Assembly (NCBI GenBank): GCA_017406775.1 | Contig: JAFQXV010000014.1 | Span: forward strand, 22,962-86,961 | Origin: Candidatus Saccharimonadota bacterium | Lineage (GTDB): Bacteria > Patescibacteriota > Saccharimonadia > Saccharimonadales > Saccharimonadaceae | Reading direction: 5' to 3' | Length of the DNA: 64,000 nt | In this document: one piece after another, positions 27,339-58,488 of the stretch | Layout: the number at the start of each line of letters is the position of its first letter | Position numbering within the stretch: the stretch's first letter is position 1 | Notes under the pieces: model-generated | Database searches by the model: none | Told to the model about the DNA's origin: nothing | Seen by the model: only the letters and a program-made list of their open reading frames with translations | Position numbers and translations under genes: made by a program

Positions 27339-27518
27339 AAATAATAATAAAATACTAAATTATTACATAATGAGATTTAGACCAGATTTATTTGATGCAT
27401 TTTTTACAACTTAACAATGAAAAAATCTCCTAAATTATAAGGAGATTTTTTCTTGACTTATGTTGTAAACAAATACATCAAATAAGTCCAGTAATAATTT
27501 AGTATTTTATTATTATTT
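27339..27518. repeat. 180-bp nested imperfect inverted repeat filling the LCP/jag convergent intergenic region
   Basis: 27339-27366 is the exact reverse complement of 27491-27518 (28 bp); inner 12-bp perfect stem 27420-27431/27440-27451; middle arms near-identical. Confidence 0.92.
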
Positions 27519-33497: not shown

Positions 33498-34745
33498 GTG
33501 ATAAAGATAGAAAAAATAATCCCTGGCGGTCAGGCTTTGGGGCAAATGGAAGACGGCAAAAAAATCCTCTTTTGGAATGCCTTGCCAGGAGAAAATGTAA
33601 TAGAATATAATATAACTAAGCAAAAATCTCATTACTGTGAGGCTATTGCTACGTCAGTCATTAATCAATCAGATAAACGTATTACACCTAAAGATGATTG
33701 TTTTTTATCTACTTCCCCTTGGCAGATTATTGACTGGGATTATGAAAATGATCTCAAAACAGATTTAATAGTTGAAATTTTCCGTGAACACGGAATTATT
33801 ATAGATAAACCTAATAATTTTTCGGATAACCAAGAATATTTTTACCGTAATAAAATGGAATATGCACTTTATTGGGATCAACAAACTTCTAAGATTCAAC
33901 TAGCTTTTCGTCATAGAGGAAGCCATAAGAAATTACCTATCTTTAAATCTTCCATAGAGCGTCCAGAGATTTTTGCTGCCGCTCAAAATATCATAGACGA
34001 ACTCAATCAAAAACATGAAGAAGCTCGCAGATACCAAACCCTTCTCTTACGCTCTAATCAAAAAGGTGAAGTTTCCGGCGGCCTTTACGAAAATCATCAG
34101 CCACATCCTAAATTTAAAAATTTAAGTGATGAAATTTTAGGCTATCATTATTCTTATTCTCCTAATGGATTCTTTCAAATTAATTTACCAGTTTATGAAC
34201 TCGCTCTTAAAGAAATAAAAAAAATCATTAAAACGGACGAAGTTTTAGATTTATACGCAGGTGTTGGCACAATCGGTCTTTCTATTGCTCGTGATAGAAA
34301 ACTCACTCTTGTAGAGGTAGATAAATTTGCCTTTGAGGAATTAAATAAAAATGTTATAAATATAATTCACGCTGAGAACATAGAGCGAGTGTCAAGCTGG
34401 CACGAGCAGAAGGCGCCTCCCGTAAAGACGGGCGGGCGACTGGGTTCTCGGAGTGAATTAATTAATACTGTCTTATCAAGATCCGAAGAAGCTTTAGATT
34501 ATATTAAGCAAAACCAAACTGTAATTTTGGATCCTCCCCGTTCTGGCTGCGATGATAAACTTATCGAGAAATTAAACACCATTAAACCAACTACTATTAT
34601 TTATTTATCCTGCAATCCTTCTACTCAAGCTAGAGATGTTAAGAAATTGCTAGATAATTACAAAATAAAAGATATAAAAACATTCAATTTTTTTCCACGT
34701 ACACCACACATCGAAAATCTAGTAATTTTAAATAAATCATGCTAG
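33498..34745 (+). CDS. rlmD: RNA (uracil-5)-methyltransferase, RlmD/TrmA family, with internal insertion
   Basis: [44 protein letters not shown]. Confidence 0.8.
34364..34459 (+). repeat. In-frame palindromic insertion (family A) in rlmD-like gene
   Basis: Terminal IR AATTCACGCTGAGAAC / GTTCTCGGAGTGAATT (14/16); internal CAGAAGG and CCCGT-AAAG-ACGGG hairpin; 96 bp, ORF stays open. Confidence 0.85.
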
Positions 34746-34758
34746 AATAACAAGAGAC

Positions 34759-34848
34759 GGAAAGGTGGCCGAGTGGTTGAAGGCGCACGCTTGGAAAGCG
34801 TGTGTGCGAGCAATCGTACCGCAGGTTCGAATCCTGTCCTTTCCGCCA
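34759..34848 (+). tRNA. tRNA-Ser(GGA)
   Basis: GGAAAGG/CCTTTCC acceptor, CACGC-TTGGAAA-GCGTG, long variable arm, GGTTCGAATCC, CCA. Confidence 0.97.
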
Positions 34849-35009
34849 AATTAGCTAAAATAGAACTTGTTCTATTTTAGGAGATTTGAAGGAATGAAAT
34901 GGGATTATTTTATCCTGTCCTTTCCGCCAAATTAGCGACAGAAGAGCTTGCTCTTCTGGAGGTAATTTAAAGGAATGGATCTAGGATCAATATCCTGTCC
35001 TTTCCGCCA
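34831..35009 (+). repeat. Tandem copies of tRNA-Ser(GGA) 3' end
   Basis: ATCCTGTCCTTTCCGCCA at 34831, 34912, 34992 (period 81, 80). Confidence 0.95.
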
Positions 35010-40690: not shown

Positions 40691-40767
40691 GTGCCCGTAG
40701 CTCAGCTGGATAGAGCGTTTGCTTGCGGAGCAAAAGGTCGTAGGTTCGAATCCTGTCGGGCATACCA
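40691..40767 (+). tRNA. tRNA-Arg(GCG)
   Basis: GTGCCCG/CGGGCAT acceptor, TTTGC-TTGCGGA-GCAAA anticodon arm, GGTTCGAATCC, CCA. Confidence 0.93.
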
Positions 40768-40852
40768 TAACAGAAAAAACAAGAATTTATTCTTGTTTTT
40801 TGTGTTTTGGGATGGTCGAAAAAGGATCCCCATCCTGTCGGGCATACCATAA
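40750..40852 (+). repeat. Copy of tRNA-Arg 3' end
   Basis: ATCCTGTCGGGCATACCATAA at 40750 and 40832 (period 82). Confidence 0.95.
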
Positions 40853-40912
40853 TAAAAACAAGGCCAAAGGCCTTATTTTTATTTTAAAATTATTTTTTGC
40901 TATAATAAAATT

Positions 40913-41790: not shown

Positions 41791-44514
41791 ATGAGATTTT
41801 CGAGTAGTTATGAGCCGGGGGAGTACGAATCAGACATTTATGCTGCATGGGAAGCGTCTGGTATTTTTAATCCTAAAGTCCCCACTGTACCAATAGATAA
41901 TAATAGCGATGGCAGTGATGACAGAGTAAAAAAATCCAACCAAACATTTTCAATCGTTATGCCGCCACCAAATGCAAATGGTAATCTTCATATTGGCCAT
42001 GGACTTACTATCGCACTAGAAGACTCTCTTACTCGGTATTACCGACTTAAAGGCGATAGTACTTGGTATATTCCCGGAGCTGATCATGCTGGTTTCGAGA
42101 CCTGGGTAGTTTATGAGCGCGAGCTAGAAAAACAAGGCCATACTAGATTTGAATACTCAAGAGATGAACTATATGCTCGCGTTTGGGACTTTGTGGCTAA
42201 ACAGCGTGGTAATATGGAATTGCAATTACGTGCCCTTGGGGCGTCTTGTTCTTGGGATGATCTCACTTTTACTTTGGACGAAAATGTTATAGACCGTGTT
42301 TATACTACTTTTGAAAAAATGTGGAATGATGGACTAATCTATAGAGGTGAAAAGTTAGTTAATTATTGCCCCAAGCATCAAACTGCCTTTGCAGATATAG
42401 AAGTGGAACATCAAGATGAGAAAGGTACCCTTTGGGATATCGCCTACCAGTATGATGGTGGAGAGATTATAGTTTCCACCACTAGACCGGAAACGCTATT
42501 CGGGGATGCTGCCGTGGCTGTAAACCCAGAGGATAAACGTTATCAAAATTTACTAGGTCAAAAAGTTAAACTGCCACTAACTGATCGCGAAATTCCAATT
42601 ATTGCCGATGAACACGCTGATCCCGAATTTGGCACTGGAGCAGTTAAAATTACCCCAGCACACGATTTTGATGATTTTGAAGTAGGCGAGCGCCATAACC
42701 TTCCCCGCTTACAGGTAATTGCTGAAAACGGCACAATGGTAAACGTTCCAGAAGAATTTAATGGTCTAACTACTACAGAATGTCGCAAAAAAGTCCTTAA
42801 AACTCTAAAAGAGCAAAATCTATTAAGAGGTGAAAGGAAAATTGATCACGCTGTAGCGCATTGCTATAAATGTGGTACTACTATTGAGCCAATGCTTAAG
42901 GAACAATGGTTCATTGATGTAAAACAGTTAGCTAAGTTAGCGATAGACGCCATAGAACAAGATAAAATCAAATTCCATCCTGCCAACAAAAAGAACATTT
43001 TGATTAATTATTATAAAGGGCTTAAAGATTGGAATATTTCACGTCAAATTCCATGGGGTATTGCTATTCCAATGTTTCGCAAAGTTGATTTATCTGCCAC
43101 CGACGAACCAGATTGGATTTTTGATCGTCGTACTAATCTCCAGGAAATTGAAAAAGCTGGTGTTAAATACGTCCGCGATGAAGATACCTTTGATACATGG
43201 TTCTCTAGTTCGCACTGGCCAATAGTTTGTACGGATTGGGACGAAAATAACTTCAGTCCTTACTACCCATTAAATGTTATGGAGACTGGCGCTGATATTC
43301 TATTTGCCTGGGTTGCACGCATGATCATGATGGGGCTTTACGTTACCGGGGAGGTTCCGTTTAAAGAAGTATACCTACACGGCCTAGTTTTGGATGAACA
43401 TGGTAAGAAAATGAGTAAGAGCAAAGGCAACGTTATCAATCCTATGGATCTCGTCACTAAATATGGTTCAGATGCATTTCGTCTGGGTATTTTAAGGGGC
43501 CGTTCCGCTGGCATGAACCAAGCCTTTAGCGAAAACTCCGTCATCGCTGGCCGCAATCTCTGTAATAAACTCTGGAATATTTCTCGCCTCATTCAGTCGA
43601 TGACTGATGAAACTGATATTAATTTTGAAGTTTCAGAGACCGTGCCCCGCGAGGGTTACGACCCGAGCGAAATGAGCGAAGCTCATGACGATGGGTCTGA
43701 GCGAATGGGGTCAAAAAAACTTCAAAATAATATCAATTACACTTCTAATAATATGGGTGAAGACTGGATTTGTCGTGAAATTAACGAGTGTGTTTCTCAA
43801 GTAGAAAAAGACATGAAGGCTTATCGTTTTGCTGAAGCAGTAGAAGTTTTATATCAAACCATCTGGGACAAGTACGCAGATTGGTTCCTGGAAACTCAAA
43901 AGGTTTATAAAAATATCCCATTATTAAAAACCACTCTCGAAACGCTCCTAATCACACTTCATCCCTTTGCTCCATTTGTAACGGAAACCATCTGGCAAAA
44001 TCTCAGTTGGACGGAAGGTTTTATAGCTGCAGCTAAATGGCCCTCTAAGCTAAAATTTGACCCAATTTCGGCCGAAGAATTCGAAAGCATAAGAACAATC
44101 GTGTCTGAGGTTAGAGGCACCTTACAAGCCCTTCCAGGCACCAATAATGTAAAAAAATACGGGCTATTATACGACAATGATAGTATTGTGAATGAAAATA
44201 TGCTAATAATTAAAAATCTCACCAAAGTCCCAAGTATTAATTCGCTAAATGGCAATCCACGTGGCCTTAGAATTGCGTTAGCTAATCATGAAATCTATTT
44301 AGACGTATCAGAAGATATCGTCATGGAATACAAGGAAACTCTTACAGAAAAAATCCTCTCTGTCGGTAAAGAACTGGACGCGCTTAATGCTCGTCTAATG
44401 AATCCTAATTATGTGGATAGAGCCCCCGCTCACCTCGTTAAAGAAACCAGGGATGGCGTCAAAGAGAAAGAGTCCCTAATTAATCGCCTAAAACAACAAT
44501 TAGAGTTAATCTAA
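41791..44514 (+). CDS. valS: Valine--tRNA ligase with internal insertion
   Basis: PPPNANGNLHIGH, DWNISRQ, DTWFSS, KMSKS. Confidence 0.97.
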   Translation: MRFSSSYEPGEYESDIYAAWEASGIFNPKVPTVPIDNNSDGSDDRVKKSNQTFSIVMPPPNANGNLHIGHGLTIALEDSLTRYYRLKGDSTWYIPGADHAGFETWVVYERELEKQGHTRFEYSRDELYARVWDFVAKQRGNMELQLRALGASCSWDDLTFTLDENVIDRVYTTFEKMWNDGLIYRGEKLVNYCPKHQTAFADIEVEHQDEKGTLWDIAYQYDGGEIIVSTTRPETLFGDAAVAVNPEDKRYQNLLGQKVKLPLTDREIPIIADEHADPEFGTGAVKITPAHDFDDFEVGERHNLPRLQVIAENGTMVNVPEEFNGLTTTECRKKVLKTLKEQNLLRGERKIDHAVAHCYKCGTTIEPMLKEQWFIDVKQLAKLAIDAIEQDKIKFHPANKKNILINYYKGLKDWNISRQIPWGIAIPMFRKVDLSATDEPDWIFDRRTNLQEIEKAGVKYVRDEDTFDTWFSSSHWPIVCTDWDENNFSPYYPLNVMETGADILFAWVARMIMMGLYVTGEVPFKEVYLHGLVLDEHGKKMSKSKGNVINPMDLVTKYGSDAFRLGILRGRSAGMNQAFSENSVIAGRNLCNKLWNISRLIQSMTDETDINFEVSETVPREGYDPSEMSEAHDDGSERMGSKKLQNNINYTSNNMGEDWICREINECVSQVEKDMKAYRFAEAVEVLYQTIWDKYADWFLETQKVYKNIPLLKTTLETLLITLHPFAPFVTETIWQNLSWTEGFIAAAKWPSKLKFDPISAEEFESIRTIVSEVRGTLQALPGTNNVKKYGLLYDNDSIVNENMLIIKNLTKVPSINSLNGNPRGLRIALANHEIYLDVSEDIVMEYKETLTEKILSVGKELDALNARLMNPNYVDRAPAHLVKETRDGVKEKESLINRLKQQLELI
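43614..43735 (+). repeat. In-frame palindromic insertion in valS
   Basis: TGATATTAATTTTGAAGTTT / AAACTTCAAAATAATATCA terminal IR; internal GGGT-TACG-ACCC and ATGAGC-GAA-GCTCAT hairpins. Confidence 0.85.
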
Positions 44515-46383: not shown

Positions 46384-47445
46384 ATGAAGTTTATTCATCT
46401 AAACGCAACCGAATACTCTAAATTTGCCGATAAAAGCCCCTATAAATCGTTTCTCCAGACTGCAGAAATCGCCAAATTAAGAGAAGAGAATGGTTGGGTA
46501 GCATATTATTTTGGGGTAGAAAAAGACAACAAGATAATCGCTGCAGCTATGGTGGTAGCTAAACCCACTTTTCTTGGTAAATCCACCTATTATATTCCAG
46601 GTGGACCACTCTTAGATTACGAGGATACGGCCGTAGTAAACTTTTTCTTTAAAAATCTCAAAAATTATGCTAAATCTCACAATGGCTATTTACTTCATAT
46701 CGAACCATATTACGAATTAATTGAACGCGATCGTGATGGCAAGAAAAAACCAGATGGCTTCAATCATCAAAAGGCTCTCGGTAACCTAAAAAAACTTGGT
46801 TTTCTACCTACGCATTCAGATAATCCAAAATATCTATTTGTTTTAAATATCAAAAATAAAAAAGAAGACGAACTATTTGCTAGCTTTAAACAAAATACCC
46901 GTAACCTTATTAGTCGCGCTACTAGAAAGGGGGTTGTAGTTCGTGAGATTGGCAGGGAAGAGCTGAATAGTTTTAAGCAAATTACCGCATCAACCTCAGA
47001 GCGTCGTCACTTTAGTGATAAATCTTTAGATTATTACGAAACGATGTATGATTTATTTGCAAAAAAAGACGAAGTTAAATTTATCATTGCAGAAATAAAC
47101 GACAAAAAGCCAATCCCAGTAGCCGCCGCCATGTTTATGACTTACGGCGATGAAGTTATCTATCTATTTTCTGGTAGCGATGAAAAATATATGAAAGAAT
47201 ACAATGCCCAATATGCTATTCAATGGTATATGATTAAATATGCCATCAAAAATAACTTCAAACGCTATAATTTCTATGGCATTCAAGGCCTCCCAGATCC
47301 AAATAAACCAGGTTACGGTATCTATAAATTTAAAAAAGGCTTTGGTGGTCACGTGGTAGAACTAATCGGCGCTTATGAATTGCCATTAAATAGATTTTTT
47401 TATAATACTCACAAAATTTTATCAAAAATAAAGCATCTAAAATGA
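46384..47445 (+). CDS. FemAB/MurM-family aminoacyl transferase
   Basis: FLQT, YIPGGPLLDY, FKQNTRNLI, YNFYGI, GIYKFKKGF. Confidence 0.92.
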   Translation: MKFIHLNATEYSKFADKSPYKSFLQTAEIAKLREENGWVAYYFGVEKDNKIIAAAMVVAKPTFLGKSTYYIPGGPLLDYEDTAVVNFFFKNLKNYAKSHNGYLLHIEPYYELIERDRDGKKKPDGFNHQKALGNLKKLGFLPTHSDNPKYLFVLNIKNKKEDELFASFKQNTRNLISRATRKGVVVREIGREELNSFKQITASTSERRHFSDKSLDYYETMYDLFAKKDEVKFIIAEINDKKPIPVAAAMFMTYGDEVIYLFSGSDEKYMKEYNAQYAIQWYMIKYAIKNNFKRYNFYGIQGLPDPNKPGYGIYKFKKGFGGHVVELIGAYELPLNRFFYNTHKILSKIKHLK

Positions 47446-49835
47446 ATTTATCAGGTCTCACATCTAAACAAGTTAAAGTAAAAAAAGAACAGGGAAGAAT
47501 TAACCGTGTTCCAGGTAAAAACACCAATTCAATTGGCAAAATAATACTAAAAAACACCTTAACCATTTTTAATTTAGTTAATATCATCCTAGCCATATTG
47601 ATCATTTCTGTTGGTGCCTATAAAAACCTCCTCTTTGTTCTAATTGCTATAGCAAACACCCTAATTAGTATAATTAACGAAATTCGTGCCAAGAAAACCG
47701 TCGATAAAATGCGTCTAATTGCCGAAAAACAACCTACGGTGATTAGAGAAGGTAAAAACATCCAGATTAAACAATCCGAAATCGTAGACGGCGACCTCAT
47801 AGTCTATGGTTTTGGGGATCAGGTTGTGGTGGATGCGCAAATTGAACAGGGAAGCGTAGAAGTTAATGAGTCTTTTATCACTGGTGAGCAAGACAATGTC
47901 CTTAAAAAACCAGGCGATAAATTGATTTCCGGTAGTTTTATAGTTTCAGGAACATGTAAAGCTACTGTTACCGCTGTTGGGGCCGAAAACTTCATCAATA
48001 AGCTAGAATCGAGCGCGCATACCATAAAAACCGCAGATTCTAAACTTTTTACTATTATGAATAACATCGTCAAATATATTTCAATTATACTTATTCCAAT
48101 TGGCGTTCTTCTGCTTTGGGCACGTTTTCGTGTACCAGACACTACTCCTGAAGTTGCAGTCACTAGTACAGTCGCTTCACTTATCAATATGATTCCAGAG
48201 GGTCTAATCCTCCTCACCTCATCCGTTCTCGCACTAGCCACTATTCGTCTTTCACGTCAAAAAGTTTTAGTCCAAGATCTTTACTCAATTGAAACTCTAG
48301 CCCGTATAGACTGCATAGCACTAGATAAAACTGGTACGCTTACCACCGGCAGAATGACCGTAAAAGATATAATTCCAGCAGAAGGCCACACAAAAAATGC
48401 CCTAGAAAAAGCACTCAAGCTTATTTTAAGCGCAACAGCTACCGATAACGCTACAAGTACCGCCTTAAAAGAAAAACTGCTTAAAAAGGCAAAATTTAAG
48501 CCCACGGAGCAAATCATAGAATTTATTCCATTTTCATCCGATCGAAAATATTCCGGTGTTCGTACCAAAGATGCTACTTACCTTATGGGGGCTCCCGAAA
48601 TTATTGCTGGTAATACACCAGATTTTCCAGGCACTTTCCGCATCCTCGCGGTAGTGAAAGACGAACACCAAAAAGGTGGTTTAGAGGAATCTGTCGGAGG
48701 TTACGACCGAGACAGAAGGAGCGCGTCCCCCGTAACGACGGGCGAGCGCGACTCCGTGTCCGATAAACCACCTTTTGATGTTTTAGGTTATATTCTCCTC
48801 GAAGACGAACTTCGAAAGGATGCCGAAGAAATTATAAATTATTTTTACAAAAACGATGTTGATATTAAAATTATCTCTGGCGACAATTTAAAAACAGTAG
48901 AAACCATTGCTAAAAATACTGGCATTAAAAACATCTCCGGTATCGATCTTTCCACTATAAAAGGCGATATTAATTATGAAAAATTAGTCAAAAATTATAA
49001 TATTTTTACTCGTGTTAAGCCCGCCCAGAAGAAATCATTGATTCTAACCCTTAAAAAGCTAGGTAAGACCGTTGCTATGACCGGTGACGGCGTTAATGAT
49101 ATTCTGGCTATGAAAGAAGCTGATTGCTCTATCGCAATCGGAGAGGGCTCCGATGCTGCTAGGCGTTCCGCTAAACTTGTTCTTTTAAGTAATGATTTTG
49201 CTGGCGTACCCAAAATAATCGCTGAGGGTCGTCAAACCATCAATAATCTAGAGCGTTCTACTACTTTGTTTATCGCTAAAACTGTTTACGCCTCCATTTT
49301 GGCAGTAGTTTTTATCTTCTTACCATTCAGGTCTCCATTTGCTTCACCCGTAGAAATGTCGCTTCTCAATTTTGCCTGCATTGGCTTTCCGGGCCTTATA
49401 CTCGCCCTAGAACACAATACTAGCCGCATTAAAAATCTCTTTGTTAAAAACATCCTGCAATACTCTGTTCCGGTCGGTCTTACTATCTCTATAGCAATGA
49501 TCGTTTTGTCTTGTCTTACCCATAATAATTTTTTCCCAGTACACGAATTGTCCACCATTGCCATTTTTGTTACCTTTATCGTTGATTTAGCCTTGATTTA
49601 TCGTATCTCTAGACCGCTTACTCCGCTCCGTAGTGCACTCCTGATTACTATTATCGGTATTATAGTCGCCGCTTTTGTTATTCCATTTTTACATGATTTC
49701 TTTGATTTTATTTATCTTGGCCGCAATGGGATTATTATCCTTGCAGTCACAGCTGTCCTGTCACTAGTAATTTTTGAAGTCATCCATCATTTAGTTCGCT
49801 ATTTCTCGTTACGTTTTGATAAAAAATCTTACTAA
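47442..49835 (+). CDS. P-type cation-transporting ATPase with internal insertion
   Basis: ESFITGE, IPEGL, DKTGTLT, ISGDN, MTGDGVND. Confidence 0.96.
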   Translation: MNLSGLTSKQVKVKKEQGRINRVPGKNTNSIGKIILKNTLTIFNLVNIILAILIISVGAYKNLLFVLIAIANTLISIINEIRAKKTVDKMRLIAEKQPTVIREGKNIQIKQSEIVDGDLIVYGFGDQVVVDAQIEQGSVEVNESFITGEQDNVLKKPGDKLISGSFIVSGTCKATVTAVGAENFINKLESSAHTIKTADSKLFTIMNNIVKYISIILIPIGVLLLWARFRVPDTTPEVAVTSTVASLINMIPEGLILLTSSVLALATIRLSRQKVLVQDLYSIETLARIDCIALDKTGTLTTGRMTVKDIIPAEGHTKNALEKALKLILSATATDNATSTALKEKLLKKAKFKPTEQIIEFIPFSSDRKYSGVRTKDATYLMGAPEIIAGNTPDFPGTFRILAVVKDEHQKGGLEESVGGYDRDRRSASPVTTGERDSVSDKPPFDVLGYILLEDELRKDAEEIINYFYKNDVDIKIISGDNLKTVETIAKNTGIKNISGIDLSTIKGDINYEKLVKNYNIFTRVKPAQKKSLILTLKKLGKTVAMTGDGVNDILAMKEADCSIAIGEGSDAARRSAKLVLLSNDFAGVPKIIAEGRQTINNLERSTTLFIAKTVYASILAVVFIFLPFRSPFASPVEMSLLNFACIGFPGLILALEHNTSRIKNLFVKNILQYSVPVGLTISIAMIVLSCLTHNNFFPVHELSTIAIFVTFIVDLALIYRISRPLTPLRSALLITIIGIIVAAFVIPFLHDFFDFIYLGRNGIIILAVTAVLSLVIFEVIHHLVRYFSLRFDKKSY
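48671..48776 (+). repeat. In-frame palindromic insertion (family A) in P-type ATPase
   Basis: Perfect 13-bp IR AAAAGGTGGTTTA / TAAACCACCTTTT; arms TCTGTC..GGT-TACG-ACC..GACAGA and CCCGT-AACG-ACGGG. Confidence 0.9.
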
Positions 49836-50063
49836 TAATCCATTTATGTTAAATAAAAATATGGAAAATAACAACTTCGAAAAACAATTCAAGCGCAGTA
49901 TAGATAATGCTACTCTCGATTCAAATATCTATAAACCAGCGAAGAAGATACTTCACTTGAAAATAACACCAATGATGAAAAGTTTTTTATTATAACTACG
50001 CCTCAATAGCTGATGACCTCACTATTTATAATTGTGGGGAAGATACTGAGGAATAATTTAATT

Positions 50064-51353
50064 CTATTCTTCGATTGATATTCTGGGATAAATATTTAAG
50101 CTATAGGGGTCAACTGGCTTAACTCCAGTTTGTATCTCAAAATAACAAGCTGCTGCTACCATTGCTCCATTATCACCAGAAAGAGAAGTAGCGGGGAAAA
50201 ATACAGGGACATTCGGGGATGTTTCATTTTGTGCCATAAGTTTCGGCGAGCGCCCCTGAGCGTGTTCCGTATTAAATATTTCGAGTATTTGATTCCTGAG
50301 TTCTTGATTCGCACTCACCCCTCCAGCAATTACGATCGATTGTGTTTCGGGATATTCTTCTAGCGCCATCTCCAATTTTTCACATAAAATATCTACCGCA
50401 GTTTTCTGGAACGATGCTGCAAAATCACACACCTGTTGCGGAGTTAATAAGTCTTTTAATTTATGAGATGGATAAGAGATCGGCACTTTGGCCTCTTTTT
50501 GTACAGCCCTCAGTACTGCAGTTTTTAATCCGGAAAACGAAAAATCCAACCCCTCAACCTTTGGATGTGGCAACCTGTATTTATTGAGATCGCCCGGCCG
50601 AAGGTTAGTGTGTTCTTTGAGGACCATAAGCTTGACCGAACGGCCTTGAGTGTGTCCGAGAAGAACACACTGACCTTCGGCTGCCATACTAATACTAGGT
50701 CCTCCAGGATAAGGTAGCCCTAAAATTTTTGCCACCTTATCAAAACACTCTCCCACCGCATCATCATGAGTAGTGCCTATAATCTCAAACTGATTATGAC
50801 CACGCATATATAAAATTTGTGTATGTCCCCCTGATATTACTAAAGCCAACAAGGGGAATTGCGGGTGTTTAAGAATAGTGCTTTGAGGGGGCTCTTGGAG
50901 GCTACTGCCGAGAGCGTAGGACGCCGAGCCTCGTGAGGACGGGCGTGAGGACGTCCGGTCCCAAGAAACACTATTCCGAGCATCTGTGCTTAACCAGTTT
51001 GCATACACATGTGATTTCAGATGATGTACGGCGTATAAAGGCTTATTGTGTAGTATTGCTAAAGTTCTTGCCGTTAATGTCCCAATCAAAAGAGAACCGA
51101 GCAGCCCCGGTGCATGAGTTACCGCAATGGCATCTATATCATCCCAATTACATGACGCATTGGCAAGGGCCTTATTAATAACCGGCATAATCGCTTCAAG
51201 ATGCGATCTTGCGGCTACTTCGGGAATTACACCACCATACTCAGCAAAAATATCAATTTGACTCACAACCACATTAGAGAGGATAGAAACCCCATCTTCT
51301 ACTACGGCTGCTGCTGTCTCGTCGCAACTGGTCTCAATTCCCAAAATTTTCAT
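50064..51353 (-). CDS. tsaD: t6A synthesis protein TsaD with three internal insertions (429 aa)
   Basis: ILGIETSCDET, EVAARSH, HHLKSH, VISGGHT, DDAVGECFDKVA, FSFSGLKT, AGGVSAN, DNGAMV; start at ATG 51353. Confidence 0.96.
   Translation of the reverse strand: MKILGIETSCDETAAAVVEDGVSILSNVVVSQIDIFAEYGGVIPEVAARSHLEAIMPVINKALANASCNWDDIDAIAVTHAPGLLGSLLIGTLTARTLAILHNKPLYAVHHLKSHVYANWLSTDARNSVSWDRTSSRPSSRGSASYALGSSLQEPPQSTILKHPQFPLLALVISGGHTQILYMRGHNQFEIIGTTHDDAVGECFDKVAKILGLPYPGGPSISMAAEGQCVLLGHTQGRSVKLMVLKEHTNLRPGDLNKYRLPHPKVEGLDFSFSGLKTAVLRAVQKEAKVPISYPSHKLKDLLTPQQVCDFAASFQKTAVDILCEKLEMALEEYPETQSIVIAGGVSANQELRNQILEIFNTEHAQGRSPKLMAQNETSPNVPVFFPATSLSGDNGAMVAAACYFEIQTGVKPVDPYSLNIYPRISIEE
50211..50286 (+). 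repeat. Decayed palindromic insertion (family B) in tsaD
   Basis: Core CCATAAGTTTCGGCGAGCGCCCCTGAGCGTGTTCC aligns with the copy inside 50595-50683; degenerate flanking IR; ends approximate. Confidence 0.7.
50595..50683 (+). repeat. Palindromic insertion (family B) in tsaD
   Basis: GCCGAAGGTTAGTGTGTTCTT / AAGAACACACTGACCTTCGGC (20/21); core CCATAAGCTTGACCGAACGGCCTTGAGTGTGTCC. Confidence 0.88.
50864..50984 (+). repeat. Palindromic insertion (family A) in tsaD, antisense to the ORF
   Basis: GAATAGTG / CACTATTC stem with G-T extension; core GGAGGCTACTGCCGAG and CTCGT-GAGG-ACGGG. Confidence 0.8.
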
Positions 51354-51465
51354 ATCAAAATTATACCACATACCCCTATTTATTACCACTTAAAATTGAC
51401 TAGAAACAGGAAATATGCTATAATTAATATTACTATTCGTTTTCGTTTTGTAAGGGGTGAGATAA

Positions 51466-51825
51466 TTGCAAAAACCGCACGAACGTACTTTGAAAATGAT
51501 GGAAAACTATGTCAGACTACACGAAGAAGGGAGGAGTGTCTCAGAGATTGCCAAACTATACGGCCTGAGCGCCAGTACAGTGTACGGCCGTCTGGCTGAG
51601 ATCGCAAACAAGGCAGGAGTGTCCAGAGAGTCTCTTCTGGAAAAGCCTTTCACGGCGAATCACTCTGGACGTAACTTTACACCCGTTAAGCCGGTCAATA
51701 CTACGGAGCTCGAGAGGCGCTTTAATGAGGTTCTAGATAACCTCAAAAAAGTGCGTGCGGAGCTCAGTCTGTGCATCGCTAAGCAAGAAGAAAACGCAAA
51801 AATTCTGACCATCAGGAAGGAGTAG
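51466..51825 (+). CDS. Helix-turn-helix protein with coiled-coil tail
   Basis: LHEEGRSVSEIAKLYGLSASTVYGRL; start codon uncertain; GC-rich. Confidence 0.7.
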   Translation: MQKPHERTLKMMENYVRLHEEGRSVSEIAKLYGLSASTVYGRLAEIANKAGVSRESLLEKPFTANHSGRNFTPVKPVNTTELERRFNEVLDNLKKVRAELSLCIAKQEENAKILTIRKE

Positions 51826-51827
51826 GT

Positions 51828-52676
51828 ATGAATTTTCGCACTGCCACCAGTAGAAAGATCAAAACCCTCATCAAACAAGGGTTTACGAACGAAGAACTCT
51901 GCGAACGCTTTGAATGTACGGAGGAGGAGCTAGAAGGACATATCCGCCTACTGTTTAAGACTGGCGCCGACGGTGTTTTAAGGGATTTAGGCGCTAATCG
52001 CAAGAAGGCGCGCCCTAAGCTTCGCGAAGAAGCGAGCAATCTTTCAGAGCAGTCTGAACTGGAATCTAATTCTGAGTCAGAACCTGAATGCGTGGTCGTA
52101 CCTACTTTGGTACAAGAGTCACCTACTAAGCCAACTCTTGACGAACTCATTCAGAAAGAGCATGCCCTAAGTAATGACGTAATATCTCTAGAGGTTACCC
52201 ATACGGAACTGACCGGAAAGCACCGTGTCATCATAAAACGACTTCGTGAGATTGACGACGAACTAGAAGGGCTCGAGCGGCAGACTCAATCCTGTCGCGA
52301 CCGCGCCACTCAGCTAGACACCCAGGCAAACGAAATCGTCACCGAGATGAACGATATCTCAGATCAGCGCCACACCAAGCTCGCGGAGCTCGATACGGTT
52401 CGCAAAAAGATCGAAGAGATGAGTACCGTATCAATCTACGTCTTCTCAGACGGTCGCATTGGTGCTCCGGACAATCCAGACTTTATCCTGGAGGATGAGG
52501 GATACCAGGTCCTAAAGGATGAGCTCCTCACGCGTGAGGAATGCCTGGATCTTCGGGTGCGAGATATTGTCACGCTAGCCCGTCTCAAGATCATTAGCGA
52601 AAAAGCCACAAAGTTTTCGCTGGTTTTCGAGGATCAGTCTCTAGAATCTGTCTATACTATGCTCTTTGTAGAGTAG
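51828..52676 (+). CDS. Coiled-coil hypothetical protein, possible N-terminal HTH
   Basis: GFTNEELCERFECTEEEL; long heptad region; AAGGAG upstream. Confidence 0.7.
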   Translation: MNFRTATSRKIKTLIKQGFTNEELCERFECTEEELEGHIRLLFKTGADGVLRDLGANRKKARPKLREEASNLSEQSELESNSESEPECVVVPTLVQESPTKPTLDELIQKEHALSNDVISLEVTHTELTGKHRVIIKRLREIDDELEGLERQTQSCRDRATQLDTQANEIVTEMNDISDQRHTKLAELDTVRKKIEEMSTVSIYVFSDGRIGAPDNPDFILEDEGYQVLKDELLTREECLDLRVRDIVTLARLKIISEKATKFSLVFEDQSLESVYTMLFVE

Positions 52677-52752: not shown

Positions 52753-53184
52753 TTACTCGTGATGATACGGACCATTAATGGCGATTTGTGAAGCTCTGTA
52801 AACCTGTTCAGCTACAACCAGCCTTGCAATCATATGAGGGAATACTAATTTAGAAAAACTCCATACAAAATCCGAACGTAAACGTACCTCATCTATAAAC
52901 CCATACGCTCCCCCAATCAAAATGACGATATTTTTTCCTTCCAAAAACACCTTTTCTAATCTCTGAGATAATTCAGGTGATGATATATTTTGTCCACGCT
53001 CATCACAGCAAATTACATAGTCATCACTTTTAAAAGGCCACTCCACCAATTTCCGTGCTAACTTCTCTTCCTCCAAAAAATCCCAGGTTATATCGTACGG
53101 TTTCCTCAGTCTTTTTTCGTATTCGGAGCAAGCCTCTGCACACCAACCAACATTCTTCTTTCCCCCAGCAATTATTTTTATCAT
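52753..53184 (-). CDS. rlmH: 23S rRNA (pseudouridine1915-N3)-methyltransferase
   Basis: CDERGQNISS, LIGGAYG, VFPHMIARLVVAEQVYRA..PYHH; start at ATG 53184. Confidence 0.95.
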   Translation of the reverse strand: MIKIIAGGKKNVGWCAEACSEYEKRLRKPYDITWDFLEEEKLARKLVEWPFKSDDYVICCDERGQNISSPELSQRLEKVFLEGKNIVILIGGAYGFIDEVRLRSDFVWSFSKLVFPHMIARLVVAEQVYRASQIAINGPYHHE

Positions 53185-53216
53185 GCAAAGATTATACCAT
53201 AACCTTTGCAAAAAAA

Positions 53217-53381
53217 TGGCTGGACCGGCAGGATTCGCACCGAGCTTTAGCGAGGTCCGAATCCTCGTTTTTACAGTTTTTTACATAAAAAAATGGCTGG
53301 ACCGGCAGGATTCGATTCGAAGAACGAATCCTCGCTTTTCCAGTGTATCTGAAAGAGACATGGCTGGACCGGCAGGATTCG
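53217..53381 (-). repeat. Tandem copies of tRNA-Gln 3' end
   Basis: TGGCTGGACCGGCAGGATTCG at 53217, 53294, 53361 (period 77, 67). Confidence 0.95.
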
Positions 53382-53435
53382 AACCTGCGAATGCTGGGAC
53401 CAAAACCCAGTGCCTTACCGCTTGGCGACGGTCCA
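53361..53435 (-). tRNA. tRNA-Gln(TTG)
   Basis: TGGACCG/CGGTCCA acceptor, CTGGG-TTTTGGT-CCCAG, GGTTCGAATCC, CCA. Confidence 0.97.
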
Positions 53436-57284: not shown

Positions 57285-57845
57285 ATGTACGGACCAACGG
57301 ATTTAAAGAAAAATACACTAATTACCCTAGATGGGCAGCCATACAAAGTAGTAGAGTATTCTCAAAAAGTCATGGGGCGTGGTGGTTCGATCGTTAATGT
57401 AAAAGTTAAGAATTTAATCACTGGCGCCTTGCTCCCGAAGACTTTTAAGGGCCAAGAAAAAATAGAACCTGCAGAAGTTACCACTAAAAAGGTTCAGTAT
57501 CTTTACAAGGATGATGCTAAGTTCTATTTTATGGACCCAGAAAGTTTTGAGCAATACGAGCTTACTTCTGATATGGTTGGCGATTCCAAAGATTTTATGA
57601 AGGACGGCGATGAAATGGAAATCCAGTTCTATAATGGCACCCCAATTAATCTCGTTCTACCTAAAAATATTTGGCTTACGGTAACCTATACAGAAACTGC
57701 CGTTAAGGGGGATACTTCAACTTCTGTCATGAAAGATGCAACTCTAGAAACTGGCGTAGTTATAAAAGTCCCAGCTTTTATTAAAGAAGGCGATATCGTA
57801 TCAGTGGATACAGAAACCTATGCATACCGTGAACGCAAAAAATAG
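57285..57845 (+). CDS. efp: Elongation factor P
   Basis: LYKDD..FYFMDPESFEQ, KGDT, ATLETG..VPAFIKEGD. Confidence 0.96.
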   Translation: MYGPTDLKKNTLITLDGQPYKVVEYSQKVMGRGGSIVNVKVKNLITGALLPKTFKGQEKIEPAEVTTKKVQYLYKDDAKFYFMDPESFEQYELTSDMVGDSKDFMKDGDEMEIQFYNGTPINLVLPKNIWLTVTYTETAVKGDTSTSVMKDATLETGVVIKVPAFIKEGDIVSVDTETYAYRERKK

Positions 57846-58488
57846 AGGTTATTACAAAATTGAAGGCGCCGCTCGCGCCTTTAATTTTGATTTTAGAGAT
57901 AAAACCGTTTTAGACATCGGTTCTTCTACCGGTGGTTTTACGGAATATGCCCTAGAACATGGCGCAAAAAAAGTCATCGCCATAGAAAAGGGAACTAATC
58001 AAATGATAAAACCACTTCGTTACGATAAGCGTATCGAACTTCACGAAAAAACCAACATCTTCTCAGTGGGAACACAAGATAGTTCCAATCGAGGGAATCC
58101 GGAGGCTGGCAAGCCGAGGACGAGCGCCGGCCGCCCGTGGCGACGGGCCGGCCGGACGCGGCCCGAGATGGAACTATCTTGTGTTCCAGACGTGATCGTT
58201 GCAGACGTTTCATTCATTAGTCTCAAAAAAGTTTTATTACACGCAAAATTCCACTTATCAAACCAAAAAACCACTTTCCTCGTTATGCTTAAACCCCAAT
58301 TCGAAGCTAGGCCAGATCAGCTCAGCAAGGGGATTGTTAAAAACGAAAAAATCCGCCGTGAAATTATCAAAGAATTTGAGCAATGGCTAAAACAAAATAA
58401 TTTTATCATCGTAAAAAAACGCGACAACAGCCTGGAGGGAAAACACGGCAATTTAGAAAGATTTTACTGGCTAAATTTGTCAAAGTAA
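57820..58488 (+). CDS. tlyA: TlyA-family rRNA methyltransferase (no S4 domain) with internal insertion
   Basis: LDIGSSTGGFT, DVSFISL, LKPQFE, GKHGNLE; start uncertain. Confidence 0.85.
   Translation: MHTVNAKNRGYYKIEGAARAFNFDFRDKTVLDIGSSTGGFTEYALEHGAKKVIAIEKGTNQMIKPLRYDKRIELHEKTNIFSVGTQDSSNRGNPEAGKPRTSAGRPWRRAGRTRPEMELSCVPDVIVADVSFISLKKVLLHAKFHLSNQKTTFLVMLKPQFEARPDQLSKGIVKNEKIRREIIKEFEQWLKQNNFIIVKKRDNSLEGKHGNLERFYWLNLSK
58069..58187 (+). repeat. In-frame palindromic insertion (family A) in tlyA
   Basis: Perfect 19-bp IR GGAACACAAGATAGTTCCA / TGGAACTATCTTGTGTTCC; core CGGAGGCT-GGCA-AGCCGAG and GCCCGT-GGCG-ACGGGC. Confidence 0.92.

Follow-up and report, generated by a model that had tools for sequence, protein, structure and literature searches.

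The question raised by this locus is why a single bacterial TsaD, an essential tRNA-modification (t6A) enzyme, should be 429 amino acids long when solved TsaD structures contain 327–343 amino acids, and what the additional residues are. The gene lies within a window of 64,000 nucleotides (the whole stretch of DNA that was analysed) with a GC content of 37%, and the nearest genomes are those of Candidatus Nanosyncoccus sp. and uncultured Candidatus Saccharibacteria. The Pfam profile PF00814 matches the protein as TsaD with an E value of 4.5e-80 in two stretches, and HMMER alignments of solved TsaDs to it are split at exactly three places, leaving query residues ~122–162, ~227–258 and part of ~358–385 unaligned. 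Empty alleles of relatives have 7, 2 and 7 residues at these three sites (sites 1, 2 and 3), while the protein studied here has 45, 28 and 32. The three extra loops of ~38, 26 and 25 amino acids account for ~89 residues and so explain the excess length, as the first-pass annotation had proposed when it compared the protein with a typical length of ~340 amino acids and attributed the difference to three inserts.

Three inserts and their relatives

The positions of the inserts and of other elements in the window are given in Table 1. The clearest hairpin is the insert at site 2, which contains an inverted repeat with two 28-nt arms (50597–50624 and 50654–50681) that are 86% complementary, with a stretch of 20/21 paired positions inside, and a conserved core at ~50617–50659. 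Its DNA fold has a z-score of −4.98, with 0 of 200 shuffles folding as well, and in one gut metagenome the bin containing this core has a word depth of 1807 compared to 23 in the flanks. The insert at site 3 aligns both to the family B core and to its intact orthologue in contig L084, and the two B copies of this gene resemble each other (local alignment z = 5.6), but at site 3 the hairpin is gone (fold z = +0.72). The peptides that had been read from these two copies, GHTQGRSVKLM and EHAQGRSPKLM, are both present in the translation, where the B peptides are ...LLGHTQGRSVKLMVLKEH... and ...NTEHAQGRSPKLMAQNE..., and the peptides of the tsaD inserts include GHTQGRSVK and SPKLMAQNETSPNVPVFFPATSLSGDNGAMVAAACYFEIQTGVK. 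The insert at site 1 forms a GC island of 60–67% at 50880–50970 in the plus strand profile and has a weak outer stem, GAATAGTGCTTTGAGGG / CCCAAGAAACACTATTC, with outer arms of ~13/17 and a weak hairpin (fold z = −1.9). The earlier description of one stem of 20/21 and one decayed stem in the B copies is therefore accurate, while that of three palindromic inserts applies cleanly to site 2, weakly to site 1 and not to site 3.

Table 1. Location of the tsaD gene, its inserts and further hairpin elements of the window, with the occupancy of the three tsaD sites among 121 TsaDs (the window's protein included; frequencies are biased upward, see text)
Feature	Position	Strand	Location or host gene	nhmmer E	Empty state in relatives	Filled TsaDs
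tsaD, host of three inserts	50064–51353	minus	429 aa, ATG at 51353			
tsaD site 1 insert, family A	50870–50982	plus (antisense to tsaD)	residues ~124–162	2e-24	7–10 aa	107/121
tsaD site 2 insert, family B, intact hairpin	50591–50690	minus	net insertion, residues 228–253		1–2 aa	58/121
tsaD site 3 insert, decayed family B	50206–50298	minus	residues ~356–383	6.6e-17	7 aa	57/121
Family A copy	48666–48781	plus	in frame in P-type ATPase gene 47442–49835 (plus)	1.5e-25		
Family A copy	58063–58193	plus	in frame in FtsJ-like methyltransferase gene 57820–58488 (plus)	1.2e-19		
Short A-like hairpin	34372–34452	plus	in frame in tRNA U5-methyltransferase gene 33498–34745 (Pfam)			
GC-rich hairpin element, 12-nt outer stem	43622–43730	plus	in frame in class I (Val/Leu-type) tRNA synthetase gene 41791–44514			

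The same elements are found in frame in unrelated housekeeping genes of the window. The site 1 insert matches the family A copies in the P-type ATPase gene (local alignment z = 10.4) and in the FtsJ-like methyltransferase gene (z = 5.1) in the plus orientation only, and is therefore antisense relative to its host gene tsaD, as had been annotated. These repeats were detected by sensitive local alignment and by nhmmer, the profiles of which recover A and B copies in the window with E values of 1e-17 to 1e-25; blastn-short searches of the inserts against the window returned only self-hits. The copy in the ATPase (Pfam E1-E2_ATPase) has an inverted repeat at 48671–48688 / 48759–48776 and a fold z of −7.2, and its host protein has 797 amino acids while orthologues have 738–766. 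The copy in the methyltransferase (Pfam FtsJ) has 19-nt perfect arms and a fold z of −7.64. Two further elements are related less closely: the short hairpin in the tRNA U5-methyltransferase gene folds as a hairpin and matches the A core weakly (nhmmer E 0.011), its antisense reading RPPVFTG recurring in the TsaD inserts of other lineages, and the element in the tRNA synthetase gene (Pfam tRNA-synt_1) is a weak match to the A profile. Family A elements are 111–131 nt long, and three A and two A-like copies are present in five genes of the window. All elements of the window are read only in frames that are free of stop codons, while their other frames carry stops.

Family B is also widely dispersed. 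The exact B core pattern was found at 74 metagenome loci, and of the 59 copies that could be classified 18 lie within long open frames and ~41 are intergenic, many of the latter resembling giant terminator hairpins. The hosts of the B core, as assigned by Pfam, are TrmD, two class I aminoacyl-tRNA synthetases, MetK, a pseudouridine synthase, QueA, a methyltransferase, TyrRS, GatB and UvrD, and in contig L152, from another lineage, the B core occupies site 1 of tsaD. The core is read in four combinations of frame and orientation, giving the peptides GHTQGRSAELM, SDTLKAVRPSLWSS, THSRPFGQAYG and EDHKLGRTALSVSE. It is also present in two GC-rich, actinobacterial-like contigs in which the stems are GC-rich. 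At the repeated core, metagenome assembly can yield chimeric contigs, an example being L126, which consists of the left flank of L136 and the right flank of L103. A search for a non-orthologous gene or transposase recurring within 2 kb of the 74 B copies found none, and Rfam searches at two thresholds returned no family, the hairpin giving only a chance match to a miRNA precursor.

The three loops of TsaD are recurrent targets. The 120 closest homologues range from 364 to 517 amino acids, and all of the length variation falls at the same three sites, each of which is polymorphic for presence or absence among close homologues. All three are filled in 20 of the 121 TsaDs, a share that, like the frequencies in Table 1, is biased upward because the homologues were ranked by similarity to an insert-bearing query. 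Which site carries a given peptide family, be it A (in two frames), B, B', C ('SSAGLE...') or A-like, varies with the lineage. Among close relatives, the site 1 insert is absent from L083–L086 and L001 and the site 2 insert from L082–L084. Parsimony on a neighbour-joining tree of the core requires at least 13, 38 and 18 changes of presence or absence at sites 1, 2 and 3, counts that are approximate because the tree is shallow and poorly resolved and the list of homologues is biased toward insert-bearing sequences. Contigs L083 and L085 have 93.5% core identity, yet the element at site 2 is present in L085 only, where it adds 78 nt. In this one pair of empty and filled alleles no target-site duplication of 3 bp or more was found, and a 5-nt inverted match, GAAGG/CCTTT, is possible. 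The view of the first-pass annotation that insertion had been repeated and the frame preserved is thus borne out at three polymorphic sites, with at least four families, several frames and both orientations.

We consider it likely, with a probability of about 0.8, that these segments are selfish, GC-rich mobile hairpins of several families, similar to the palindromic elements of Rickettsia, and that the in-frame copies in loops are those that survived selection in essential genes. A gut (ruminant-type) Candidatus Saccharibacteria genome would have been colonised by several families of hairpin elements of ~80–130 nt, which may land both in intergenic DNA and in genes. Essential genes would keep only those copies that lie in surface loops, have a length that is a multiple of three and offer a stop-free frame. 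The three permissive loops of tsaD would now all be occupied, site 1 by family A and the other two by family B, with the enzyme core left intact. Both the selfishness of the elements and the manner of their mobilisation are inferred.

Conserved cores and paired stems

All B copies share ~37 nt, GGACACRCTCRAGGCCGYTCGGCCRAGCTTATGGTCC, together with ~8 bases of the inner stem, and the hairpin is built from a long stem, a 3x3 internal loop and a 4-bp helix, followed by the core. The outer 10–30 bp of the stem differ from locus to locus and yet they pair. When the complementarity of the arms was scored by local arm alignment, the outer arms of 32 of 47 distinct B loci were self-complementary above the 99th percentile of cross-locus controls, while the outer arms of different B loci were unrelated to each other (median score 6.0, the same as in the control). 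What defines family B is its conserved core, with stems that vary, and not a palindrome of fixed sequence; the same layout is found in family A. The copies in TrmD and at site 3 of tsaD share both the stem CTCGAAATG and the peptide LEM.xSGHTQGRSAE, which indicates that stems travel with the element; two lineages have the B core at the same position of QueA, with stems that are unrelated to each other.

The eight orthologous copies at tsaD site 2 give a gap-free alignment of 85 nt. In these copies 92.7% of the cells pair, four cells being G-U, and compensatory double changes are seen in 13 of the 29 pairs (22 cells). Shuffled controls gave 5.1 ± 1.5, none of the 500 being as high as the value observed; with slid controls the result was 0–5. 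The intact stem at site 2 is therefore not merely young, but has its pairing actively kept by compensatory changes. Across the B loci, the mismatches of wobble type number 50 on one strand and 56 on the other. This lack of strand bias does not support selection on the stems at the level of RNA from one strand, and points instead to a process at the level of DNA, such as template switching from arm to arm, or to selection on the DNA hairpin.

Two other readings of the stems were considered and rejected. They are not copied from the target site, as neither arm is present in the empty allele, different families at one site differ in their stems, and TrmD and tsaD share a stem subfamily. Nor are they guides specific to a target, as the same stem subfamily is found in TrmD and tsaD while one site can bear different stems. 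The mobile unit would be the whole hairpin, consisting of a central core with its own small GC hairpin and of stems that vary by subfamily. The two arms co-evolve, so that pairing is kept; the likely cause would be DNA-level copying between arms by template switching in association with replication, a requirement for the hairpin during mobilisation in trans by a putative enzyme, or both.

The inserts are also more conserved than the gene that carries them. Between insert-bearing lineages the third codon positions of tsaD are 43–51% identical, while in the same lineages the A insert at site 1 is 86% identical and the B inserts at site 2 are 78–82% identical. Of the 13 third positions in the B core, 10 do not vary among eight lineages. 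The peak of identity ends exactly at the borders of the element, and third-position identity is at background directly outside the inserts, which excludes the spread of insert alleles together with flanking DNA by homologous recombination. The exception is the window's own copy at site 3, which has 56% identity to the intact orthologue in L084, while the corresponding values at sites 1 and 2 are 78–86%. This low identity is consistent with an older or decayed copy, and the suggestion that the two B copies differ in age is plausible but falls short of proof, because the site 3 copy also changes at an abnormally high rate: the near-identical contig L081 differs at 13 positions, all of which fall within site 3, at 50207–50298 only. 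For the conservation of the cores three explanations remain, namely constraint at the nucleotide level, re-invasion of a site by the same subfamily, or gene conversion of cores. It is not easily explained by a purely selfish element that is decaying.

The higher conservation of the core relative to the synonymous sites of its host is the main reason to weigh a second explanation, in which the hairpins do more than persist passively: either a trans-acting enzyme re-inserts them at cognate sites in a homing-like manner, or the core is a binding site for a protein or RNA that the host selects. The near invariance of the core in eight lineages, synonymous positions included and bounded by the borders of the element, speaks for this, as does the maintenance of stems by compensatory change. 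A cycle of gain, decay, loss and regain would be in keeping with the patchy distribution, for which site 2 requires at least 38 changes, and the core shared with the two actinobacterial-like contigs and the recurrence at the same QueA site with unrelated stems can be read in the same way. Against it, no candidate enzyme recurs within 2 kb of the 74 B copies, some copies such as that at site 3 are clearly decaying, and the stems, being shared between TrmD and tsaD and variable at one site, are not target-specific guides. The unbiased wobble pairs argue against a function at the level of RNA, and Rfam gave no match. We regard this explanation as possible but rather less probable than not, and clearly behind that of selfish hairpins filtered by selection. 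With similar reserve we suggest that the elements might form an undescribed class, namely mobile hairpins of Saccharibacteria with a constrained core and co-evolving stems, moved by a putative structure-recognising enzyme and re-invading the same permissive loops of essential genes in different species in a homing-like manner. Such re-invasion would account for the much higher conservation of resident copies compared with the surrounding synonymous sites.

Translation of the inserts and state of tsaD

In the 121 TsaDs and in 18 other genes all inserts keep the frame and are free of stop codons in the frame that is used. The regular build of the hairpin could be a signal for processing, and the inserts might then be removed from the mRNA, by an intron-like mechanism or through excision by an endonuclease and ligase at the hairpin, or be passed over by the ribosome in the manner of the 'byp' elements of yeast mitochondria. 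The constraint on frame and stops argues against removal, since it would be unnecessary if the insert were removed, and it holds although the other frames do carry stops. The decayed copy at site 3, which has no hairpin left, is likewise still in frame in a conserved gene. We therefore consider removal or skipping very improbable. The inserts are most likely translated as disordered loops, judging from the statistics of frames and stops.

The predicted structure supports tolerance of the inserts by the enzyme. The AlphaFold2 model of the TsaD has a confident core, with pLDDT of ~90 and means of ~85–97 over blocks of ten residues, and pLDDT falls below 50 over longer stretches only at residues 125–160, 234–245 and 364–375, which coincide with the three inserts. 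A Foldseek comparison of the model with the TsaDs of E. coli, Salmonella, Aquifex and Thermotoga gave target-normalised TM scores of 0.82–0.86. The features that define a TsaD are all present, including the TsaD/Kae1 domain, the His-His and Asp metal motifs and, by prediction, the ASKHA fold; TsaD is the only Pfam domain in the 429-residue protein, and none is found in the inserts of 25–38 amino acids.

Three insertions in one gene are unusual, and they could be read as damage to a decaying pseudogene or to a redundant copy, the more so as the view is limited to the window and a second copy elsewhere in the genome is conceivable. Several observations make this highly unlikely. All 429 codons are open, and HHLKSH and SGDNG are among more than 180 columns that are invariant in 57 insert-bearing TsaD homologues. 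A pair of insert-bearing tsaD relatives has a dN/dS of 0.045, which shows strong purifying selection on the gene. The predicted fold is intact, and TsaDs with three inserts are not confined to this genome, as the 20 cases above include others. The stretch at 50064–51353 is the sole tsaD match within the window, and its synteny with the P-type ATPase gene is kept in relatives. The situation that the first-pass annotation had named as contrary to its reading, a second intact tsaD beside a non-functional one, is not seen in the window.

The insert sequences are not an artefact of assembly. The independent assembly L081 carries the tsaD sequence with its inserts, and contigs of four gut-metagenome runs match the tsaD sequence with zero differences; the runs containing this sequence come from gut metagenomes, with bovine, sheep and goat samples among them. 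Finally, relatives within TsaD/Kae1/Qri7 generally differ by loop insertions, and the three sites are loops, but the reading of the segments as ordinary lineage-specific variable loops and not mobile DNA is refuted by the repeat searches, the same nucleotide sequences being found in unrelated genes and intergenic DNA, one family at different TsaD sites, and the segments being GC-rich hairpins in a genome of 37% GC.

Known palindromic elements and biological meaning

By description, the closest known analogue of the hairpin elements is the group of Rickettsia palindromic elements (RPE-1 to RPE-8/10; Ogata et al. 2000, 2002; summarised in PMC10969869, PMC1779305 and PMC6649704). Both are dispersed palindromic repeats of ~100–150 bp in several families, found both between genes and, in frame, within unrelated housekeeping genes, tRNA synthetases among them. 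Both inhabit host-dependent bacteria with small genomes, add a peptide that the fold tolerates and have no known transposase. The elements described here likewise occur as repeats in intergenic and coding DNA, form long hairpins (z of −5 to −7.6 in intact copies) and sit in frame in housekeeping genes. As the organism belongs to Candidatus Saccharibacteria, a phylum of the CPR, and the comparison is one of descriptions, they are at most an analogue of the RPEs. They also differ in several respects. Family B has a conserved core and stems that are specific to a locus or subfamily, several families have repeatedly hit the same three loops of a single gene, and conservation of the core exceeds that of synonymous sites in the host gene. 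RPEs have been reported to lose their repeat identity over time (PMC6649704), while such passive decay of the palindrome is seen here only at site 3, the orthologues of site 2 being 92.7% paired.

Other groups of repeats share some of these properties. MITEs such as the ERIC/RU elements and the QMITE of Coxiella can fuse in frame with host open reading frames (PMC10969869, PMC2759123, PMC5896051), and like the present elements they are small, non-autonomous repeats with inverted-repeat ends that are occasionally intragenic. In contrast to MITEs, the terminal arms here are not conserved between copies, neither a target-site duplication (in one pair) nor a parent IS (within 2 kb of the B copies) was found, and a much larger share of the copies sits in frame in essential genes. 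Coding palindromes in the mitochondria of Nematomorpha and hairpin elements in fungal and sponge mitochondria (PMC6649704, PMC2800124) are also coding hairpins with complementary arms, for which template switching has been proposed, and are gained and lost dynamically between species. Those elements lie in organelle genomes and lack a shared conserved core, and in Nematomorpha both arms encode conserved parts of the protein and not an added loop.

REP/BIME elements, which are mobilised by RAYT transposases (PMC3733652), are structure-forming palindromic repeats with many copies and are often terminator-like when intergenic. However, REPs are extragenic, 20–40 nt long and marked by a conserved GTAG/CGTC tag, while the elements here are 80–130 nt long and about one third are intragenic; no RAYT was seen with the hairpin elements. 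Inteins and mini-inteins were rejected, as the inserts have only 25–38 amino acids, lack a Pfam splicing domain and lie in variable loops. TIGR arrays (TIGR-Tas) consist of tandem repeat or stem-loop units beside a tas gene (PMC12045711), and were rejected as the copies here are single and dispersed, with many inside open reading frames. Membership of the MITEs, REPs, inteins or TIGR arrays thus in each case misses a defining feature. In the literature searched we found no description of such elements in Saccharibacteria or Patescibacteria, which is not proof of their absence.

To our knowledge, 'coding palindromes' that keep the reading frame have until now counted as something peculiar to Rickettsia. 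The elements described here are an abundant counterpart with several families in the ultra-small, epibiotic Saccharibacteria, an unrelated phylum. Their inserts inflate protein lengths, and the repeated core breaks assemblies of Saccharibacteria MAGs. The insertion sites provide a natural map of permissive loops in TsaD, aminoacyl-tRNA synthetases, MetK, QueA and other proteins. With a conserved core, compensatory stems and patchy recurrence, the elements offer a tractable case for studying how such elements move and how palindromes persist in coding DNA. They suggest that even the most essential genes of reduced genomes can harbour selfish DNA, and that such DNA may shape these genomes.

Divergence confined to tsaD site 3

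Aligning the window with L081, a near-identical independent assembly of the same region, over 2291 nt (window 49979-52269) gave 13 differences, all 13 of which lie inside the decayed family B copy at tsaD site 3 (50207-50298, 13 in 92 nt). Zero differences were found in the remaining 2199 nt aligned, the site-1 and site-2 inserts of tsaD included. Each of the two site-3 alleles has some states in common with the intact orthologous copy in the outgroup contig L084 (7 versus 5). The pattern suggests that the site-3 element alone has been hypermutated locally or has undergone patch conversion.

Possibly inserted features and palindromes of the window

Coordinates of the features discussed (window positions unless a contig is named)
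Feature	Position	Strand	Setting
Nested, nearly perfect hairpin	27385-27488		23% GC, between two convergent genes
Two-gene stretch	51466-52676		between tsaD and SPOUT methyltransferase gene (52753-53211)
tRNA-Gln	53361-53435	minus	
Copies of TGGCTGGACCGGCAGGATTCG	53217-53237, 53294-53314, 53361-53381		
B' copy	L085 10925-11050		tsaD site 3 of P0004/P0078
B-core region	L089 1-3700		GC-rich contig, actinobacterial-looking genes

The two genes next to tsaD look like a small inserted pair. They are approximately 50% GC, against 37% across the window. L081 and L082 also have them; in L083, L085, L086 and L163 nothing separates tsaD from the methyltransferase gene. One product is a helix-turn-helix protein of the HTH_7 type, and the other, of 282 amino acids, has no Pfam match.

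The 3′ end of the tRNA-Gln gene, TGGCTGGACCGGCAGGATTCG, recurs in two further copies right beside the gene, each followed by a T-arm-like hairpin. Past integrations into the gene may have left these extra copies behind as scars. Comparable duplicated tRNA 3′ ends occur at 34831-34977 and 40750-40861.

The window also has nested palindromes without a GC-rich core. In the AT-rich hairpin an outer stem of 21 bp encloses a terminator-like inner hairpin, and the fold of 27375-27500 is −42.9 kcal/mol with RNA parameters.

Relatives and range of the family B core

A sister family, B′, is identical in kind of build to family B and has a different core, CGGGAGCGCTCCGGGGCGCTAGCCCAAGTCTTACTCCC. It occupies site 3 in 9 of 121 TsaDs (the window protein and its 120 closest homologues), and in L085 it has an almost perfect 23-bp stem and encodes the peptide ...FCRERSGALAQVLLPPKN....

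Contig L126 carries on its left the flank and stem arm seen in L136 and on its right the arm and flank seen in L103, the two halves meeting at the B core. Either B copies have recombined or the assembly is chimeric at this repeat, which calls for caution with MAGs from this clade.

The exact family B core is also present, with GC-rich stems, in L087 and L089, two 61% GC contigs whose gene content is actinobacterial in look (universal-stress protein, NlpC/P60/CHAP-like). The usual hosts of Saccharibacteria are Actinobacteria, and so the family B element may, on the evidence of these contigs, cross between epibiont and host.
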